NCBI GenBank assembly: GCA_046262115.1
Contig: JBHENJ010000029.1
Coordinates: 1 to 61,908 of the forward strand
Reading direction: 5' to 3'
Source of the DNA: Candidatus Limnocylindria bacterium
GTDB taxonomy: Bacteria > Chloroflexota > Limnocylindria > QHBO01
Length of the DNA: 61,908 nt
The notes beneath the pieces were generated by a model, which was not told where the DNA came from, searched no databases, and saw only the letters and a list, made by a program, of their open reading frames with translations. Positions 2,352-33,892 of the stretch are shown piece by piece. The translations under genes and the position numbers were made by a program. Position 1 is the stretch's first letter. Each line of letters opens with the position of its first letter.

Positions 2352-2699
2352 TCAGCCGAGGATGCGAGGCAGGTTGCTCGCCAGATCCCAGGCACCGACG
2401 GCGATCAGGGCAACGCCGACAACGAGCTGAAGCGCGCGCTCATGCTTCACGACGGCGCGCACGACTTGCGCTCCTCGTCCGGTCCCGATCGTCCCCAGGA
2501 GGAAAAGCGGCAGCCCGAAGCCCACGCCGAATGCGCCGAAGAAGAGCAACCGCCCCAGCGCGTCACCGATGGTCAGGCTGAAGGTAAAAAAGCCGACCAG
2601 GAACGGCCCGCTGCACGGGATGGCCATCGGGGCGAAGAGCAGGCCGTAGCTGAACGCACCGATGATTGGTCCGCGCTGCCCGATCGGTCCGATGCCGAT
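2352..2699 (-). pseudogene. CcdA/DsbD-type cytochrome c biogenesis membrane protein, C-terminal ~115 aa only
   Basis: Tail of ORF 2352..2918: GPIIGAFSYGLLFAPMAIPCSGPFLVGFFTFSL...GLPLFLLGT...LVVGVALIAVGAW. The N-terminal half, which should carry the first Cys-containing TM segments, is missing. Confidence 0.55.
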
Positions 2700-2975
2700 G
2701 ACGCCGTCGACCGCCTTGCCTTCATCCGCTCGGCGCAGGCGGTCGGGCTGACCCTGGCTGAGGTGCGCCAGGTGCTCGGCGTCGGCGACGCCGGCGAGGC
2801 GCCCTGCCGGGTCGTCACGGACCTTATCGACCGGCGATACGCCCAGGTGCGCTCGCGGATTGCCGAACTGCGTGCTCTCGAGCGTGACCTTGCACGGCTG
2901 CGTGCTCGCGCGGCGCAACTGGAACCGCGCGACTGCGACCCGTCAGGGGTCTGCCACGTTATCCCGAGGCAGGGC
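2700..2975 (+). pseudogene. MerR-family regulator, dimerisation/effector half only (HTH missing)
   Basis: Within ORF 2337..3122: DRLAFIRSAQAVGLTLAEVRQVLG...APCRVVTDLIDRRYAQVRSRIAELRALERDLARLRA...DCDPSGVCHVI. No winged-HTH segment lies upstream. It abuts the truncated CcdA fragment head-to-head. Confidence 0.5.
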
Positions 2976-3161
2976 GTGGACGGACGCGGGCCCACCATAA
3001 GCGTGCGGCGCAACCCACCCCATAACGGACGCGCCCCGCGGTCCGGGGGGCGCGCCCGACTGACCCAAGGTCGCGGCCGTTGTCTCGCTCCCGCCGCGGC
3101 CTCCGCCCGTTCGGCCCCGTAACCGTGGCGGACAGCTCGCGAGTTGTGCCGGCTCCTTGGA

Positions 3162-3722
3162 CTAGCTTGTCTGGATGTACACGTTCATGCCGCTGACGAT
3201 CTTGTTGAAGTTCAAGACGCCATCGACAACGAGCGTCACGCCCTCGCCGGAAGGATCGTCATGCGTCGCCGGCGTCTGCGGCCCGATGATGCAGAAGGTG
3301 GTGAGGGTCCCTGGGAGTGCCAGGGTCGTCCCATCGGGGGTGAGAGTGACGGGCCAGTTTCAGCGCGCCGCCACAGAAGTCCGGCGGGAGTACGGTATCG
3401 GGATCGGTGAAGGTCAGAACGCCGCAGCCGTAGAACTCGAACGAGCGCAGCGCGGTCGCCGTCCACGTGCCGGTGGCCAACGTTGCCGTCGCTGTCGGAG
3501 TGGGGTGAACGTCCCCGACGCCGTCACCGATTTGGGATGGACCGCAAATACGCCGCCGCCAGTGATCGCTACCTGGTCGCCATTCGGAGCTTCGGCGACG
3601 TTGGGCACCTCGATCTCGAGCTCGAAGGAGGCCGACTGATTGTTGGGATCTGCCAACGCCAATCCCGGCGTGAGCGCGAGCAGGGCGGTGACAGCGAGGG
3701 TGAGGGGCAAGAGTCGTCGCAC
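3162..3722 (-). pseudogene. Secreted protein of unknown function, frameshifted paralog of 11694..12287
   Basis: Signal peptide MRRLLPLTLAVTALLALTPGLALA, then DQVAITGGGVFAVHPKSVTASGTFT | HSDSDGNV | ATGTWTATALRSFEFYGCGVLTFTDPDTVLPPDFCGGALKLA | VTLTPDGTTLALPGTLTTFCIIGP...NVYIQTS*. At least three indels sit at G/C runs near 3503, 3477 and 3352. Confidence 0.5.
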
Positions 3723-3898
3723 AGCATATCCTCCCGTTGCAGACGTCAGCCACAGTAGTGGCGGAGGGGCCGGCCTGATGACAGCGACCGCGGTCGGCTC
3801 GCGTCACGCGGGATCTACGAGATCGTGTCGCGCGCGAACGGCGTATCCGGCACTTAATCGCCCCCGACCGAGAGCGCGGCGCCGAAGAGCAAACGTTG

Positions 3899-4753
3899 TC
3901 AACCCTCGAGACCCGACGCCAGGAAGCTGCGCATGATCGCGTTGAACTCGACCGGCCGCTCCATGTTGCTGACATGACCGGCACCTTGGATCACGCTCAA
4001 ACCGGCCGCAGGAATCGACGCGTAGAGCGCGTGCGCGACGGCTATTGGTGATCGCGCATCCTGGTCGCCCCAGATCAGGAGCGTCGGAACGCGGATCGCG
4101 CCGAGCAGGTCACGCGTATCGGCGCGCGCGAGCGCGGTGGCCATCAGGCGAAAGCCGAGCGGATGGAAGTCGGCCATGATCGATGCCAGCTCATCTTTGA
4201 CGTCGGTCGCCACCGATGCGCTGAACATCCCGGGCAGGTAGCGGGGCACGAACTCCGCGGGCGGAAGCAGCGAATCGCGGAGGTAAGCGGCCAAGCGCTC
4301 CTCGGCCACTTCGGCCGAGAGCGACCCCTTCCAACCGGCGTACGTTTCGGCGAGCACCAGCGAGCGCACGCGCGCCGGGTATCCCTGGTAGAACGCCTGA
4401 GCCAGCAACCCTCCCCACGAAAGACCGACAATGAAGGCGGGGTCGACCTCGAGGGCATCCAAGAACACGGCCAGGTGGGCTGCCCAGTCCTCGATCCCGA
4501 AAGGGTCGGGCGGGTCGGATGAGCCACCGGCACCTGGAGCGTCCGAGGCCAAGACGGTGAACTCGTCGGCGAGGTCGACAAGCTGGTGCCCCCACGCGCG
4601 CGAATCGTGGATGAAGCCGTGCAGGAGCACTAGCGGAGGACCTGTTCCGCGACGCCGGTACGCGACCGAACGCCCGTCCAGCTCGAGACGCTCGAGCGGG
4701 GCGAGGTCTGTGCCGGTTTCGGTGGCCGGATCCAGCGGCGACCGATGGGTCAT
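3899..4753 (-). CDS. Alpha/beta hydrolase
   Basis: ORF 3899..5017 trimmed to MTHRSPLD (ATG 4753-4751). Motifs: PLVLLHGF, nucleophile elbow GLSWGG, C-terminal GAGHVSNMERP. Confidence 0.8.
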   Translation of the reverse strand: MTHRSPLDPATETGTDLAPLERLELDGRSVAYRRRGTGPPLVLLHGFIHDSRAWGHQLVDLADEFTVLASDAPGAGGSSDPPDPFGIEDWAAHLAVFLDALEVDPAFIVGLSWGGLLAQAFYQGYPARVRSLVLAETYAGWKGSLSAEVAEERLAAYLRDSLLPPAEFVPRYLPGMFSASVATDVKDELASIMADFHPLGFRLMATALARADTRDLLGAIRVPTLLIWGDQDARSPIAVAHALYASIPAAGLSVIQGAGHVSNMERPVEFNAIMRSFLASGLEG

Positions 4754-5573: not shown

Positions 5574-5858
5574 TCAGGCGCGGTTCCATCCGCGTTCGCG
5601 CGTCAGGCCCGCCACGTCGGTCGGCATCCCAGTGTGGTGGAGGAACGCATCGAGCTGGTCGATCGCCTTGGCGTATGTCGTACGCGTCGATGGGCTGCGG
5701 TTCTCGGCGTGGAGGTGGCGCAGGAACGAGGCGCGCAGTGGAGCGATCTCGCCGCTCGCGGTATAATCGGCCCTCGGGACAGGGGACTGAGCCACCGCTC
5801 GCGCCTCGTGACGGACGTCAGACTTCGCAGTCATAGGCTCAACGAGCGCTGTGGTCAA
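5574..5858 (-). pseudogene. Tyrosine recombinase N-terminal (SAM-like core-binding) fragment
   Basis: ORF 5574..5858: LRASFLRHLHAENRSPSTRTTYAKAIDQLDAFLHHTGMPTDVAGLTRE. No catalytic domain follows in any frame that I translated. It lies 30 nt upstream of repeat copy 1. Confidence 0.5.
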
Positions 5859-5888
5859 TCCTCATCCGGGAGCCGAATCGAGGTATAT

Positions 5889-5961
5889 GCTCGATTTGAG
5901 CGAGAAACGGCTCCGAACGACCCGGCGGAGTAGCTCAGTGGTAGAGCAGGGGACTCATAAG
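5889..5961 (+). repeat. Copy 1 of [upstream flank + 5' half of tRNA(CAU)]
   Basis: 5924-5961 ggcggagtagctcagtggtagagcaggggactcataag matches 12678-12715 with one C>T difference. The flank tcgatttgagcgagaaacgg resembles tcgatctgagcacgaaaccg of copy 2. Confidence 0.8.
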
Positions 5962-6120
5962 TCTCTGAACGCAAGCGCTGTGCTACGAGCGTGGGAACGC
6001 GAGCGTAAGGGCCAAAGTTATCTACTGTAACTTCGGCCACCCTGAGCGCTGTGCTACCGGCTATTTCACGCTCGTTGCGCGGAGCGTGAACCAGTCGGTT
6101 ATCGACTGTAGGCCGTAACC
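5962..6120 (+). repeat. Conserved ~160-nt module, copy 1 (att-arm, structured RNA or small insertion element)
   Basis: The first 99 nt differ from 10613-10711 by 4 substitutions. Internally it is a tandem of two ~80-nt units, each AGCGCTGTGCTAC ... GAGCGTG-type motif ... GTTATCNACTGTA(A)C hairpin. There is an 11-bp hairpin GGCCAAAGTTA/TAACTTCGGCC at 6010-6038 and a 9-bp hairpin TTCACGCTC/GAGCGTGAA at 6065-6090. Confidence 0.7.
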
Positions 6121-6149
6121 CGATTCACGCTCGGATCGGGGCCTTTTCC

Positions 6150-6186
6150 TGTCCGCGGAATCCGCCAGTACCGTTCTGGCTCCGCA
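6150..6186 (+). pseudogene. Decayed tRNA 3' half downstream of module copy 1
   Basis: GAATCCGCC (6158-6166) and CTCCGCA (6180-6186) match the T-arm/acceptor segment GAATCCGCC-CTCCGCT of the intact tRNA. They are in the same order but separated by a 13-nt insert, and the T-loop is shortened. Confidence 0.4.
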
Positions 6187-6273
6187 CGGAGCTCGTCCAT
6201 CCGTCGCGCCGCTTCCTCCTGCATCGTCGGGCTGACGTGCGAAACCGCTTAAGGGAGGTGGGCCTCCGCGCCC

Positions 6274-6733
6274 TCAATTGCCGAACGGCTTCACCACCAT
6301 CAGGAAGACCAGGACGACTATTGCCACCAGGCTGAAGTACATCGAGAAACGCGGGAAACCTGATGGACAAGTGCGGTCAACTCGCCAGATGGAGCCTCCT
6401 CCGAACTTGCCGCAGCCGCCTCGGCAACCTTGGCTGGCCAGGCCCCAGCGATTCCGGTGACCACGAATGTCAGACCGAAAACGACGTACGCCAGGACCAA
6501 CCAGGGAGCCAGGAAGTTGAGCTGGCCCGTGGCTGCCGTGATTAGACCGAAGATCAGCCCGATCACGAACATCACCGGAATGGCGATGCCAATGGTTTGA
6601 CCAGCGCGAACGTGGTGCGAATCGCTCGCACATCACCTGAATTTGCCACTCGATGGAGCAGCAGCTCCGTCCCCACCGCCAATCCGACCGCGAGGAACAT
6701 CGAGACGATGTGGAGAAACTTGAAGATCAGCAT
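6274..6733 (-). pseudogene. Integral membrane protein (DUF2269-like), two frameshifts
   Basis: MLIFKFLHIVSMFLAVGLAVGTELLLHRVANSGDVRAIRTTFALVKP | IGIAIPVMFVIGLIFGLITAATGQLNFLAPWLVLAYVVFGLTFVVTG... | FPRFSMYFSLVAIVVLVFLMVVKPFGN*. A GGAGG sits before the ATG at 6733. The shifts are near 6592 and 6350. Confidence 0.5.
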
Positions 6734-7112: not shown

Positions 7113-7511
7113 ATCGGAGTCTTTGAGGAGACCGTTCTGGGCGGACTCCGAGACGCGCTCAAGGGTCAGGTGATCGCGCCTGGGGACGCGGACTACGACA
7201 CCGCGCGCAGGATCCACAACGGCATGATCGACAAGCGGCCGGGGCTGATCGTCCGCTGCACCGGTGTCGCCGACGTCATGTCCGCGCTGGCGTTCGGACT
7301 CGAGCACGACCTGCCGATCGCCGTGCGCGCCGGAGGCCACAACGTCGCGGGAAAGGCCGTGATCGACGCCGGCCTCGTGATCGACCTCTCCGGGATGAAG
7401 GGAATGCGGGTTGACCCGGTCAACCGCATCGCGCATGCCCAAGCGGGCCTCACCTGGGGAGAGTTCGACCGCGAGACGCAGGCGTTCGGGCCGGCGACGT
7501 CTCAGACCTAG
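7113..7511 (+). pseudogene. FAD-binding (FAD_binding_4 / BBE-like) oxidoreductase, N-terminal ~130 aa only
   Basis: GQVIAPGDADYDTARRIHNGMIDKRPGLIVRCTGVADVMSALAFGLEHDLPIAVRAGGHNVAGKAVIDAGLVIDLSGMKGMRVDP...AGLTWGEFDRETQAFG, then a stop. The expected ~330 further residues are absent and there is no canonical start. Confidence 0.65.
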
Positions 7512-7641
7512 GCCTTGAAGCAGAGCAATTTGGTGCGCGCTTCGAGTCGATCGTCATGGCGATCCCAGGTCTTCGGCGCTGTGGCAGGCGGGAGCGACGA
7601 GATTCGCAGCCGAGACGGCCGATTCTGAAGGGAAATGGGGC

Positions 7642-7669
7642 TGGAGCCGACATTCGGCTTCGAACCGAG
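7642..7669 (-). pseudogene. tRNA 3'-end-like scrap (T-arm + acceptor strand + CCA)
   Basis: The minus strand reads CTCGG-TTCGAAG-CCGAA-TGTCGGC-T-CCA. No convincing anticodon arm or 5' half could be folded. Confidence 0.3.
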
Positions 7670-7670
7670 G

Positions 7671-7745
7671 ATCTACTGTTTACAAGCAGATCGGCCTGAG
7701 CGCTGCGGCACGAGCGTGGATGCTCGAGCGTTACGCTGTCCAGCT
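7671..7745 (+). repeat. Partial third copy of the module family
   Basis: ATCTACTGT...TCGGCC-TGAGCGCTGCGGCACGAGCGTGGATGCTCGAGCGTTACG parallels ATCTACTGTAACTTCGGCCACCCTGAGCGCTGTGCTAC...GAGCGTGG of copy 1. Confidence 0.5.
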
Positions 7746-10352: not shown

Positions 10353-10478
10353 GTGAGCAGATTTGCAGCCTGTGTAGCGATCATTGCCTCAGTCCTGGTC
10401 GCCAGTCGGACACTCGGAGCGGTCGGTGGCGACGGCACCATTCGGCCTCTCCGTTCTCGCGACTTATCTGCTGCATGA
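10353..10478 (+). CDS. Candidate 41-aa small ORF with a hydrophobic signal-like N-terminus
   Basis: AGGAGG at 10341-10346, 6 nt before the GTG at 10353. Translation: MSRFAACVAIIASVLVASRTLGAVGGDGTIRPLRSRDLSAA*. Too short for the ORF track. Confidence 0.3.
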   Translation: MSRFAACVAIIASVLVASRTLGAVGGDGTIRPLRSRDLSAA

Positions 10479-10548
10479 GCGTTGTCCCGACGAAGTTGCC
10501 GGAGTTTTCGACTGTAGGTATCCTCGAAGGGTGTTCATTCGATAGGCC

Positions 10549-10612
10549 CCTTGTCGATCTGAGCACGAAACCGATGGCGGAGTAGCTCAGTGGCAGAGCA
10601 GGGGACTCAAAG
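10549..10612 (+). repeat. Copy 2 of [upstream flank + 5' half of tRNA(CAU)], anticodon destroyed
   Basis: CCTTGTCGATCTGAGCACGA at 10549-10568 is identical to 12651-12670. 10576-10612 equals the tRNA 5' half apart from a 1-nt deletion (CTCA-AAG instead of CTCATAAG). Confidence 0.8.
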
Positions 10613-10772
10613 TCTCTGAACGCAAGCGCTGTGCTACGAGCGTGGGAACGCGAGCGTAACTGCCAAAGTTATCGACTGTAACTTCGGCCACCTTGAGCGC
10701 TGTGCTACCGGTCAGTTCACGCTGGGTACGGGCGAGCGTCGAGTGTTCAGTTATCGGCTGAAGGCCGTAACC
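10613..10772 (+). repeat. Conserved ~160-nt module, copy 2
   Basis: Collinear with 5962-6120. The 5' 99 nt are near-identical. The 3' part has diverged but keeps TTCACGCT...AGCGT and GTTATCGGCTGAAGGCCGTAAC. The module ends ...CCGTAA, followed by CCCTT, which is the tRNA anticodon-stem 3' strand. Confidence 0.7.
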
Positions 10773-10975
10773 CTTCTACCGTCTACCCGTCAGCCGCATG
10801 CGGGTTGCGGCCGCGGGGCCGGTGGCGGTGACAGAGGGCAACATCTTGACCAACCGTCTGCACGGGAGTACACCAAACCCCTACGCGTGACGCGAGCCGG
10901 CCGCGTCACTGCCCAAGGCCGGCCCCTCCGCCACGATCCAGGCCAGTGCCCGTGCTGGATAGAGGAGGTGTGCGC

Positions 10976-12287: not shown

Positions 12288-12677
12288 TCGGGTCTCCTAC
12301 GCGGCGGGGCCGGCCAGCGCCGGCGCCGCCGCACTCTGGGCTGACGGGATCAGGATACACGTTCGCCGCCTGCCTCCCAGGGGACCGCGCGATCAGCACG
12401 CCTTTCGTGACCGTCCGGCAGATCCGCGACAGGGAAGATACGGCAGAGCGGAACCAGAACGACCAATGTTGGACCCCTCTTGGCCAATTCGAACGCTGTG
12501 CTCGGGCCACGCACGCTCGATTTGTGATCAAGACATGCCACTTCATAGTTTCCTAGTCGATTAACCGTTTGACCCTCACACGATCGCATCGGTATCCTTC
12601 TGGTCGATGAGCGTTGTGGTACGTAGTTCGCGCTCATCGCTGCTCAGTTTCCTTGTCGATCTGAGCACGATTCGTGT

Positions 12678-12752
12678 GGCGGAGTAGCTCAGTGGCAGAG
12701 CAGGGGACTCATAAGCCCTTGGTCGGTGGTTCGAATCCGCCCTCCGCTACCA
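12678..12752 (+). tRNA. tRNA with CAU anticodon (elongator Met or lysidine-dependent Ile2), CCA encoded
   Basis: GGCGGAG-TA-GCTC-AGTGGCA-GAGC-A-GGGGA-CTCATAA-GCCCT-TGGTC-GGTGG-TTCGAAT-CCGCC-CTCCGCT-A-CCA. The cloverleaf folds with G1.U72 and G27.U43 wobbles and an A31.G39 mismatch. C11:G24 argues against an initiator tRNA. Confidence 0.9.
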
Positions 12753-12754
12753 AT

Positions 12755-13723
12755 CCCTCCCTTCTCGAGCTCGCGCGCGCACTCGCCGAAGGCGCCGATG
12801 CGGGTCGCCTCATCCCGGACCGATCCGACGTCGTCCTCGCGGTGTCCGGCGGCCCGGACTCCATGGCGCTGCTCGAGGGAGCAGCCCGCCTCGCGCGCGA
12901 TCGAGAGTGGTGCCTGGTGGTCGCTCATCTCGACCACCGGCTGAGGCCTGGCTCCGGCGCGGACGCGGAATTCGTTCGCGCGACGGCGGAGGCGCGGGGA
13001 CTGCGCTTCGAGGGAACGGCCGCGGATGTCGCCGCGCTGGCGAGGACGGCGCGGCGGTCAATCGAGGAGGCGGGACGCGACGCGCGCTACGCGTTCCTCG
13101 AGGGCGTGGCCAGCACGATTGGTCCCCACGCGCTGATCGCGACCGCCCACACCGCAGACGACAGTGCCGAGACGATCCTGCTGAACATCGCGCGGGGCAC
13201 GGGAGTCTCGGGTCTTTCCGGGATCCCCGTTCGGCGCGGTCGCATCGTCAGGCCACTGCTCGGCGCCCGTCGCGCGACGCTGCGCGGCTGGCTGGTCGAC
13301 GCCGGGATCGCTTTCCGGACCGACGAGACCAACCTCGACATGCGTTATGCCCGGGCGCGGGTCCGGCACGAGGTGGTTCCAGCGCTCGAGCGGCTGAACC
13401 CCGGCGTCGTCGAGGCGCTCCTGCGCCTGGGCCGGCTGGCAGCGGACGACGACCGGCTGCTCGACGACCTCGCCTCGACTGAGCTTGCGCGCCGGCGTCT
13501 CGAGGAGGGCGACGGCGGCGCACGCATCGACTGGCACGAGCCGCTCCCACGAGCCCTCGGCCGCAGGGTGCTTCGCCTCGCGCTGGGCGTGCGGCCGCCG
13601 ATGGAGCGTATCGACGCGATCCTCAACGCCGCGGAGGGCGTGCGCGGCGGCGTTTCGATCGAGGTCGGCTCCGGAACGACGGCATCGGTGAGCGGACGGG
13701 TCATCACCATCGACGGCAACTGA
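12755..13723 (+). CDS. tilS: tRNA(Ile)-lysidine synthase; start codon unresolved
   Basis: ORF 12674..13723: VVLAVSGGPDSMALL PP-loop, HLDHRLRP, TAHTADD. No in-frame ATG/GTG/TTG occurs between the tRNA end (12752) and the GTG at 12842. The only upstream start (GTG 12674) reads through the whole tRNA. Confidence 0.8.
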   Translation, partial: PSLLELARALAEGADAGRLIPDRSDVVLAVSGGPDSMALLEGAARLARDREWCLVVAHLDHRLRPGSGADAEFVRATAEARGLRFEGTAADVAALARTARRSIEEAGRDARYAFLEGVASTIGPHALIATAHTADDSAETILLNIARGTGVSGLSGIPVRRGRIVRPLLGARRATLRGWLVDAGIAFRTDETNLDMRYARARVRHEVVPALERLNPGVVEALLRLGRLAADDDRLLDDLASTELARRRLEEGDGGARIDWHEPLPRALGRRVLRLALGVRPPMERIDAILNAAEGVRGGVSIEVGSGTTASVSGRVITIDGN

Positions 13724-13795
13724 TCCAAGCGGTCCGCGCGGGAGTACTACCTGGTGAGGTCATCGGTCGCGTCGGAGCCGCCCGGCGGCGGCGTC

Positions 13796-13801
13796 TATAC
13801 T
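13796..13801 (+). promoter_or_regulatory. Candidate -10 element TATACT within the shared motif GTCTATACT
   Basis: gcGTCTATACTgcgg lies 22 nt before the annotated ftsH start. The same 9-mer occurs at 28849-28857 and 59900-59908. Confidence 0.35.
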
Positions 13802-13823
13802 GCGGGGCGACCGACACCCACAC

Positions 13824-15803
<1,980 letters not shown>

Positions 15804-32879: not shown

Positions 32880-33892
32880 TGCGGGAGACGTCGCCGAGCG
32901 TGCCTGATGCGAGCGCGCTGGGGGCCGACGCCGCGCTCGAACGCTTCATCGGGCACCTCGAGGCGCGCAACGCGTCGCCCGGCACCGTCCGCGAGTACAC
33001 GCGGGCGAACCGCGAGTTCCTTGACTTCGTCGCCGCACGGGGCGGGCAGTGGGCAGCTCCCGGGCGCGCCACGGTCCGCGCGTACCTCGCCCACCTGGCG
33101 GATCGCGGGCTGGCGTCGGCGAGCGTCGCCGGTCGGATCGCCGCGATCCGGGCGATGTACCGCGACGCGCGGCAGCATGGACACGTGGCCGACGATCCGC
33201 TGGCGGGAGTCAGGACGCCGCGCCGGCCGTCACGCCTGCCCCGCGTGCTCGGCACGCAACAGGCCGCCGAGCTGGTGGAGGCGCCGGGCGTAGGCGCCGG
33301 ACGGGATCGCGATCGCGATGAGACGCTCGCCGCTCGCGACAGCGCGATCCTGGAGATGCTCTACGCGACCGGGATGCGCATTTCGGAGTTAACCGGCTTG
33401 ACGCTCGATCGCATCGACCTCACGAGGCGCCGCGTCCGCGTGCTGGGCAAGGGTCGCAAGGAGCGCGACCTGCTCTTTGGAAAGCCCGCGGCGCGCGCGC
33501 TGCATGCGTACGTCCGGCTTGCGCGACCCGCGCTGCGAGCGCGCGCCACGCGATCTCGCGGCAGCGCGGCGACGACGCGCGACAGCGGGCACCTGTTCCT
33601 CAACGCGCGGGGTGGAGCGCTCGGTGTGCGCGGCGCGCGCTCCGTGGTCGAGCGCTGGGCCGCCGCGGCCGGCAGTCCGGAAGCGACCTCGCCGCACGTG
33701 CTGCGGCACTCCTTCGCGACCCACCTGCTCGAAGGAGGAGCCGATCTGCGGACCGTCCAGGAGCTGCTCGGCCACCGGAATCTCCAGACGACACAGATCT
33801 ACACGCACCTGTCGGACGCCGCGTTGGTCTCGGCCTATCGGGGCGCCCACCCACGGGCGACGACGGCCGGGCGCGCGCGCGCCGATGGCTGA
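32879..33892 (+). CDS. xerC: Site-specific tyrosine recombinase XerC/XerD
   Basis: Tail of ORF 32555..33892 from the GTG at 32879: LEARNASPGTVREYT, YATGMRISEL, HVLRHSFATHLL, LLGHRNLQTTQIYTH. Confidence 0.85.
   Translation: MRETSPSVPDASALGADAALERFIGHLEARNASPGTVREYTRANREFLDFVAARGGQWAAPGRATVRAYLAHLADRGLASASVAGRIAAIRAMYRDARQHGHVADDPLAGVRTPRRPSRLPRVLGTQQAAELVEAPGVGAGRDRDRDETLAARDSAILEMLYATGMRISELTGLTLDRIDLTRRRVRVLGKGRKERDLLFGKPAARALHAYVRLARPALRARATRSRGSAATTRDSGHLFLNARGGALGVRGARSVVERWAAAAGSPEATSPHVLRHSFATHLLEGGADLRTVQELLGHRNLQTTQIYTHLSDAALVSAYRGAHPRATTAGRARADG

Follow-up and report, generated by a model that had tools for sequence, protein, structure and literature searches.

A conserved module beside orphan tRNA halves as a candidate attachment-site arm of small integrative cassettes in Chloroflexota

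A tRNA-Met island with two orphan halves and a repeated module

This study concerns a repeated module of about 160 nt in a 61,908-nucleotide stretch of DNA from a Candidatus Limnocylindria bacterium (contig JBHENJ010000029.1 of assembly GCA_046262115.1), here called the window. The single intact tRNA gene of the window, tRNA-Met(CAT) at 12678-12752, is followed by tilS and ftsH (Pfam), and upstream of it lie two orphan 5' halves of the same gene, each followed by one copy of the module. All three tRNA pieces are on the + strand, which is the fragment position and orientation seen in the tRNA islands of the Islander survey (PMC4383910). The locus is a genomic island of three stacked cassette remnants before tRNA(CAT)-tilS-ftsH. 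With a probability of roughly 0.6, the module is interpreted as the conserved P' arm of attP, or element side of attL, of small tRNA-targeting integrative cassettes of Chloroflexota, and as an array of protein-binding sites rather than an RNA gene. It is made of motif blocks a (AGCGCTGTGCT), b (CGAGCGTG) and c (GTTATCGACTGT), and the region upstream of each tRNA piece is termed the P arm. The features of the island are as follows.

5574-5858, - strand: integrase remnant, a 94-aa open reading frame (ORF) with an N-terminal SAM-like domain, reading away from half 1
5845-5923, + strand: degenerate P arm preceding half 1; motif a (AGCGCTGTGGTCA) at 5845-5857
5924-5961, + strand: orphan 5' half 1 of tRNA-Met(CAT), positions 1-39 (sub-threshold Rfam tRNA match of 26.2 bits; alignment with the intact gene)
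5961-5973, + strand: 13-nt spacer GTCTCTGAACGCA from the anticodon loop to motif a, an offset constant across junction classes
5974-6044, + strand: module unit 1, with a1 5974-5986, b1 5986-5993, b2 6000-6007 and c1 6017-6028
6045-6121, + strand: module unit 2, with a2 6045-6057, an inverted b pair 6067-6074/6081-6088 and c2 6098-6109
6119-6150, + strand: tail of copy 1, missing from copy 2, with an extra CACGCTCG (6126-6133) in a terminator-like hairpin and then TTTT
7620-7745, + strand: remnant of a second junction class, with the reverse-complement T-arm/acceptor of another tRNA, a hairpin and a core a-b-b
10440-10575, + strand: P arm of cassette B, with a residual integrase start codon (CAT, reverse complement), c1-like and a-like motifs, a tRNA promoter and a leader of about 50 nt
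10576-10612, + strand: orphan 5' half 2 of tRNA-Met (sub-threshold Rfam match; alignment with the intact gene)
10613-10772, + strand: module copy 2, with a1 10625, b1 10637, b2 10651, c1 10668, a2 10696, a degenerate b pair 10718/10733 and c2 10750
12482-12677, + strand: P arm of the intact tRNA (variant II), with an a-like motif 12492-12504, CACGCTC 12512-12518(-) and a promoter TTGACC-18-TATCCT (12569-12598)
12678-12752, + strand: intact tRNA-Met(CAT), recombination target and right end of the array (ARAGORN; Rfam 63.1 bits)

From left to right, the integrase remnant and P arm of an older element lead into half 1 and module copy 1. Cassette B consists of a small membrane-like ORF, a truncated FAD-binding gene, the junction remnant of the other class, a PadR-like gene and a P arm, and it is followed by half 2, module copy 2, cassette C (two secreted proteins) and the intact tRNA. 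The anticodon loop of half 1 (CTCATAA) is 5954-5960, and identity with the intact tRNA ends one base past it. In half 2 this loop is short by 1 nt (CTCA-AA, window 10606-10611), a loss that would damage the crossover region of that junction. The truncated gene of cassette B (FAD_binding_4, 7170-7511) precedes the tRNA 3' fragment and module core at 7620-7745, and this remnant is possibly flanking DNA brought from another site.

The initial annotation, made from the sequence of the window, had described the two copies as collinear and as following orphan tRNA halves, and both statements hold. BLASTN of 5927-6160 against the window aligned 196 nt with 10579-10773 at 88% (E=1e-66), the stretches 5962-6120 and 10613-10772 run collinear with 4 substitutions in the first 99 nt (6009, 6010, 6023 and 6042), and both copies follow 5' halves of the tRNA-Met(CAT) at 12678-12752. 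The shared sequence stops at about 6121/10773, past which the DNA is unrelated. The blocks run a1, b, b, c, a2, b (inverted), b, c, with a and c oriented as in the P arm, and c1 of unit 1 sits within an inverted repeat at 6010-6038. The proposed internal duplication into two units is seen in AGCGCTGTGCTAC (5974 and 6045; 10625 and 10696 in copy 2) and GTTATCNACTGT (6017 and 6098; 10668 and 10750 in copy 2), each present twice per copy. The five GAGCGTG/A-type sites claimed for copy 1 were recovered at 5987, 6001, 6067(-), 6082 and 6126(-); with 46 GAGCGTR matches in the whole window against 29.9 expected, five in 146 nt has a Poisson P of about 1e-8 to 1e-7. Only two exact sites remain in copy 2, the others being degenerate. 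A proposed third copy at 7671-7745 stood in part. Its core at 7699-7732 retains a, b1 and b2, again at a b-b spacing of 14 nt, but the match spans only about 36 nt (7699-7734), is weak (75-78% identity, E of about 0.01-0.04) and belongs to a different junction class, as it lies behind a reverse-complement tRNA 3' fragment. The architecture of this remnant matches that of locus L155 and of the rcVal3 loci, in which the module adjoins the reverse-complement 3' part of a tRNA-Val.

Junctions, integrases and motif conservation in relatives

The module is present outside the window, and in many genomes it is linked to tyrosine integrases and tRNAs. A scan of one genome per species with the pattern AGCGCTGNGNNACGAGCGTGG gave chance matches across many phyla and a clear cluster in metagenome-assembled genomes (MAGs) of Chloroflexota, mostly Candidatus Limnocylindria. 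A whole tRNA-Met half with module was present in four scanned loci: three times in L025, twice in L068 (the second diverged), once in L061, and at the contig end in L021. Additionally, at least 120 soil or sediment contigs matched in a metagenome scan. Across these MAGs and contigs, the junctions often form tandem arrays before a single intact tRNA. The broader search over all loci, for either scan pattern, gave at least 159 matches, about 125 of them genuine modules and the remainder chance. Among the 159 matches listed, the module adjoins a tRNA-Met 5' half (43), a reverse-complement tRNA-Val(GAC) 3' part (61), a tRNA-Val 5' half (12), a tRNA-Arg(TCG) 5' half (7) or a tRNA-His 5' part (1), and the other matches are mostly chance occurrences in coding sequence. 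A Val-type module also lies on a contig of L032 (761-808), a MAG labelled Steroidobacteraceae, a gammaproteobacterium; since all other hosts are Chloroflexota, this contig is probably mis-binned. BLAST of half and module against phages and plasmids gave a match confined to the tRNA part.

Every genuine copy among those matches adjoins a tRNA piece, and the distance is constant: the start of motif a lies exactly 13 nt past the last anticodon-loop base in the Met5, Val5, rcVal3, Arg5 and His classes, independent of which tRNA it is and which half remains. Identity with the tRNA ends at G39 (Met), within positions 29-41 (Val) or after the CCA directly past the anticodon loop (Arg), which places the crossover at the anticodon loop, a sublocation recognised for Islander islands. 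The two tRNA-Val classes are mirror images around the palindromic anticodon stem. The Val and Arg modules are single units in which the hairpins H1 and H2 are missing while a, b and c are kept at the fixed offset, and in short module variants leader-like sequence (AGTTTCCTTGTCGATC) takes over after unit 1. An orphan half lies upstream of an intact tRNA in the same orientation in L061, L119, L130, L171 and L158; L061 has a single orphan half and module with intact tRNA-Met 5 kb downstream, and L119 likewise has one orphan. Multiple junctions per contig were also found in L089 (three) and L084 (two). In L181 (254-543), L158 (1932-2120), L112, L134 and L182, an intact tRNA-Val(GAC) is followed about 25 nt later by a reverse-complement module and anticodon-arm remnant. 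These units contain no cargo, and that of L181 sits immediately before a second tRNA-Val gene.

The remnant at 5574-5858 matches Phage_int_SAM_4 of Pfam (E=0.0028) and a hidden Markov model (HMM) of our own built from 41 full-length homologs (E=5e-16); its catalytic domain is gone, and tblastn links it to fragments in L021, L061 and L025. As this 94-aa piece is the only integrase remnant in the window, the window cassettes are non-autonomous. SAM-like integrase ORFs lie on the opposite strand just upstream of the halves in L025 (2941-3534), L061 (2094-2570) and L021 (2650-3195), and a search with the L021 fragment found full-length integrases of 305-308 aa of the XerC/D-like tyrosine type. An integrase or remnant occupies the same position in L021, L025, L061, L133, L145, L173, L184, L201 and the window. 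L082 has the order ftsH, tilS, intact tRNA-Met, divergent full-length integrase and cargo, and L084 holds a complete element between two half-module junctions, with integrase, Gp49-like toxin, XRE antitoxin, insertion sequence (IS), ADH and MarR genes. A full-length integrase beside a restored tRNA, as in Islander islands, was thus found in relatives of the window (L082, L084, L184 and L133).

Some further observations concern gene content. A Gp49/HigB-like toxin and XRE antitoxin adjoin the integrase in L084 (1683-2463), L025 (1979-2665) and L061 (1136-1976), and the antitoxin gene of these Met-type elements terminates right at the module. L084 also has a 100-aa ORF beside the integrase (1348-1650). 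An IS256-like fragment splits the L021 integrase (2042-2650), and L084 has a DDE_Tnp_1 transposase (2588-3970). The cargo of 37 Val/Arg-type loci (e.g. L105, L158, L164 and L171) is enriched for extracytoplasmic function (ECF) sigma factors (8 ORFs) and for adenylate-cyclase, AAA_16 and tetratricopeptide-repeat (TPR) regulators (5-6 ORFs). A separate XerC/D-like tyrosine recombinase of the window (32957-33889, + strand; Phage_integrase E=6e-40) has about 28% identity with the cassette integrases and is probably a housekeeping Xer enzyme. The tRNA(CAT)-tilS-ftsH synteny (window 12678-15803) recurs in L082; tilS encodes tRNA-Ile lysidine synthetase. In our reading the intact tRNA(CAT) has G1-U72 and an A31/G39 mismatch, and it may be a lysidine-modified tRNA-Ile2 rather than an elongator tRNA-Met.

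Across 29 two-unit Met modules the motif blocks are conserved at 0.87-0.91 (b1b2 0.88, c1 0.91) and the linkers at 0.41-0.75, the invariance of a and b1 being partly inherent in the search pattern. For comparison, DNA identity is 0.69-0.72 for the integrase between lineages and 0.76-0.86 for the P arm, and downstream of the module the copies share no homology (mean identity 0.39). The P-arm consensus from about 50 regions upstream of tRNA-Met starts runs from the integrase start (CAT) through AATTATCGACTGT (c1), AGCGCTGTGCTAAC (a), TTGCCT (-35), CAGTTATCGACTGT (c2, in the spacer) and TATCCT (-10) to a leader of about 50 nt and the tRNA. In cassette B the tRNA promoter is TTGCCG(-35)-17-TATCCT(-10, 10519-10524), and its spacer contains motif c (10504-10515). 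On the complementary strand, a and c1 spell TTAGCA-16-GATAAT-GGAG-ATG, plausibly a leftward integrase promoter. Among Met P arms, 53% contain motif a and 59% the Met-type motif c; the share with motif a is 37% among Val P arms, and that with Met-type motif c is 0% for the Val and Arg types. In the Met type, motifs a and c are therefore reiterated on both the P and P' arms, as arm-type sites are; for Val and Arg this is weaker. Within the window, all exact a matches and 5 of the 6 c matches fall in these arms.

Upstream of the intact tRNA the motifs noted in the initial annotation were found, CACGCTC at 12512-12518(-) and GAGCGTT at about 12608, and 12482-12525 resembles the first half of unit 2. 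The variant-II leader has an inverted repeat ATGAGCG/CGCTCAT and CAGTTTCCTTGTCGATC. The variant-II upstream region also occurs in L169, L094, L183 and L135 and carries AGTTTCCTTGTCGATC motifs. Two other candidate roles were rejected. The module units do not look like promoters, with -35-like/-10-like spacings of 12-13 nt (+) and 29 nt (-) and an empty promoter scan of 5700-6400, and a weak Met resemblance of motif a to a core-type integrase half-site (NNCNCTGNNC) was not found in Val.

The module as a probable P' arm, and alternative explanations

What the sequences show directly is the geometry of the junctions, their linkage to integrases and tRNAs, the existence of arrays, blocks that are conserved at a constant offset, and no covariation. 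The contexts of L082 and L084 point to a circular element with a leftward integrase, a divergent promoter region of about 135 nt (P arm), a replacement tRNA 5' half, the anticodon loop crossover, a 13-bp half-site, the module and cargo. Such cassettes, about 0-6 kb in size, would integrate when a XerC/D-like tyrosine integrase recombines within the 7-nt anticodon loop of a tRNA gene. Integration would join the chromosomal promoter and 5' half to the module, giving the orphan half and module at 5924-6120 and 10576-10772, and would join the promoter and 5' half of the element to the resident 3' half, so that a working tRNA is kept. The P' arm of attP would in this way become the element side of attL, and the spacer at 5961-5973 is presumed to be the right-hand core half-site (C') of attP/attL. 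This is the arrangement expected of DNA that belongs with a tyrosine-recombinase core as one unit, in which a 7-bp overlap is followed by about 13 bp of half-site and then by accessory DNA. Repeated insertion would stack cassettes, and later deletions would strip their integrases. Junctions of tandem arrays are indistinguishable in appearance from attP.

Under this model the module would work as DNA, with blocks a, b and c as predicted protein-binding sites. In the P arm, the Met-type a and c would coincide with the divergent promoters of integrase and tRNA, and proteins on both arms may shape the recombination complex and regulate both promoters. That proteins bind the module, which proteins these are and that recombination needs the module are points we infer from the motif pattern. 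The initial annotation had proposed integrase/excisionase arm-type sites on both att arms. Placement on an att arm stands, as the module abuts the crossover, is linked to integrases and tRNAs and, in the Met type, shares a and c with the other arm. The arm-type integrase sites do not. The integrases P0002 (from L084) and P0034 (from L082) have a SAM-like domain that begins at residue 17-23 (17-101) and a catalytic domain from 123-126 onwards (123-287). The SAM-like domain is preceded by only about 16-19 residues, no further domain is present, and the arm-binding N-domain is thus absent. Lambda-type arm sites are accordingly not the mechanism. As binder of the blocks, an accessory or regulatory factor or additional protomers of the integrase would be a better candidate than an N-domain of the lambda Int kind.

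The lack of an arm-binding domain is one of several points that count against the P' arm interpretation, as is the search-pattern effect on a and b1 mentioned above. No excisionase (Xis-like) or other constant accessory gene was identified in the elements, and no integrase was found in the 37 Val/Arg-type loci (285 kb) when 141 ORFs were searched with our HMM and Pfam, so integrase linkage is shown for the Met type only. Sharing of motif c between the arms is also clear only for the Met type. The module units resemble diverged paralogues of the promoter region, and the likeness of the arms could therefore partly reflect ancestry or gene conversion instead of common binding. The intact tRNA of the window has the variant-II upstream region without an integrase trace, which simple serial insertion does not predict; this region may be the native promoter, which a simple serial-insertion model would put at the far left of the array. 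Finally, the well-kept palindromes H1 and H2 fit hairpin-based functions as well.

The absence of integrases from the Val/Arg loci, the zero-cargo Val units and the variant upstream region keep alive an integron-like extension of the model, which we put forward tentatively and regard as on the unlikely side. Here the tRNA piece, the 13-bp half-site and a-b-c would form a portable recombination site for a guild of mostly integrase-less Limnocylindria cassettes, captured, stacked and exchanged at Met, Val, Arg and His tRNAs in either orientation by a few trans-acting integrases. If true, this would be a tRNA-anchored analogue of integrons moving ECF sigma factors, cyclase-type regulators and toxin-antitoxin pairs, and, if cassettes are mobilisable in trans, a new way in which a major soil lineage exchanges gene cassettes. 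Separately from this extension, an orphan tRNA piece, 13 nt and AGCGCTGTGCT..GAGCGTG make a simple signature by which islands of the present kind can be found in uncultivated soil Chloroflexota, with matches in more than 100 metagenome contigs. The loci also offer a natural attP series, with the same arm module beside different tRNA cores in both polarities and an integrase without an arm-binding domain, suited to asking how simple tyrosine recombinases gain directionality and target specificity.

A role at the RNA level is unlikely. It supposes that the orphan tRNA promoter fires, that leader, half and module are co-transcribed, and that hairpins (H1, H2 and, in copy 1, 6119-6140 with TTTT) terminate transcription and insulate convergent cargo from antisense read-through, or form a stable small RNA, as the initial annotation had suggested. 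Such a role would suit the promoter of orphan 2, which is near consensus (TTGCCG-17-TATCCT), the module-adjacent cargo, which is usually on the opposite strand, and the terminator-like site at 6119-6140. However, the T-tract occurs in copy 1 only. The module had also been described as hairpin-rich, and hairpins do exist, but folding is exceptional relative to shuffles in copy 1 only (z=-3.26, compared with z=-0.01 for copy 2). H1 and H2 are kept as inverted repeats (paired in 78% and 83% of alignment cells), with a variable H2 loop (identity 0.41), whereas H3 is unconserved (63%) and the single-unit Val and Arg modules do without H1 and H2. The proposed covariation test gave nothing beyond shuffles: RNAalifold on 108 cores and 29 full modules found 0 compensatory pairs, and H1-H3 were no better than shuffle controls (79 of 500 shuffles as high), so sequence is kept without compensation. 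A candidate unit-1 stem around GAGCGAAA, convincing by eye, was rejected, with 45.4% of cells paired versus 44.5% when shuffled and a failed slide control. Mutual information in the 108-sequence alignment was uninformative, being dominated by subfamily structure, and Rfam on the window at the gathering score and at E<=5 gave tRNA matches only and no other RNA family. Contigs of X26, a run flagged only as 'RNA?', span the half-module junction, but contigs from DNA runs do likewise. A terminator or insulator role for unit 2 is possible.

It is distinctly unlikely that the module is a functionless fossil, a decayed duplicate of the integrase-tRNA promoter region (e.g. from old nested insertions) kept by proximity to a selected crossover and homogenised by gene conversion or recent spread. 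The module order c-a2-c does parallel c1-a-c2 of the P arm, with insertions and a broken -10, the window array is decayed (the lone integrase remnant and the 1-nt loss in half 2), and the short variants turn leader-like after unit 1. Set against this, the motif blocks of 29 copies from many samples exceed both the integrase gene and their own linkers in conservation, and subfamilies that differ in tRNA target and in polarity have the core in common, always at an offset of exactly 13 nt, which drift would not keep.

An integron-like platform in the strict sense, with the tRNA piece and module as an attC-type site of integrase-less cassettes captured and shuffled at tRNA genes by an integrase acting in trans, is very unlikely. 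Arrays of 0-5 kb cassettes mostly without integrase (window, L089, L164 and L158), zero-cargo units behind tRNA-Val, the 285 kb of Val/Arg-type loci without a detected integrase and the enrichment of their cargo for ECF sigma factors and cyclase-type regulators are in keeping with it. However, the integrase-less Met cassettes retain the integrase start codon and promoter and so look like deletion derivatives of autonomous elements, many contigs are short and their integrases may be off-contig, and no single array-end integrase was seen. Finally, the module is hairpin-rich and repeated, and both tRNA-Val arrangements exist (5' half-module and reverse-complement module-3' half, whose transcripts would be complementary), yet it is barely credible as a miniature inverted-repeat transposable element (MITE), which the initial annotation had listed, as a tRNA intron or as a Nanoarchaeum-type split-tRNA guide in which a 5' half with module pairs with a reverse-complement module and 3' half: copies lie always by an orphan tRNA piece at a fixed offset and in the window only at tRNA halves, never dispersed and lacking both terminal inverted repeats and target duplications, the module is not followed by a 3' exon and Rfam gave no intron match, and intact tRNA-Met and tRNA-Val genes beside the arrays mean that no split tRNA is needed.

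Comparison with known systems

Lambda-type integrases bind arm sites via a dedicated N-terminal domain. The arms described here share with the arm-type sites of lambda attP short motifs that recur to the left and right of the core with constant orientation, beside a tRNA-type core, but differ in the short stretch of about 16-19 residues before the SAM-like domain of the integrase and in that no Xis-like gene was identified. At the XerCD sites cer and psi, which serve plasmid dimer resolution, accessory DNA is bound by host PepA, ArgR or ArcA, which sets topology and directionality. Both systems pair a simple XerC/D-type recombinase with accessory DNA of about 150-180 bp that flanks the core on one side, a resemblance that would be one of mechanism only, whereas the site here serves integration into tRNA genes.

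Integron attC sites act as folded single strands with structural conservation. Tandem short integrase-less cassettes, each ending in a conserved recombination site, are a feature shared with integron arrays and with cis-mobilisable elements that grow by accretion. However, it is sequence blocks that are conserved here, with no structural covariation of the attC kind. Many cassettes carry an integrase or its remnant, and the anchor is a tRNA gene rather than attI.

The tycheposons of Prochlorococcus are cargo elements with tyrosine recombinases at particular tRNA genes, including a tRNA-Met(CAT), and they too stack with partial tRNA copies between them and decay into remnants that build islands (bioRxiv 10.1101/2020.12.28.424599). 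Their hosts are of a different phylum, the paper does not describe a conserved arm of several motifs at a constant offset, and no replication or PICI-like (phage-inducible chromosomal island) module was seen here; the likeness is one of layout. Islands with a 5' fragment (a small minority, 159 of 3919 in the Islander survey), crossover at the anticodon loop and tandem arrays are already known (PMC4383910). The Islander islands with a displaced 5' fragment and an anticodon-loop (site A) crossover share with the present elements a tyrosine integrase, a split tRNA restored by island sequence, a displaced fragment that marks the island end and lies upstream of the tRNA, oriented like it, and tandem arrays (PMC4383910). 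In contrast to those islands, the elements described here are 0-6 kb, mostly lack an integrase, carry the promoter along with the replacement 5' half, and have one conserved arm module across elements that target four tRNAs in both polarities.

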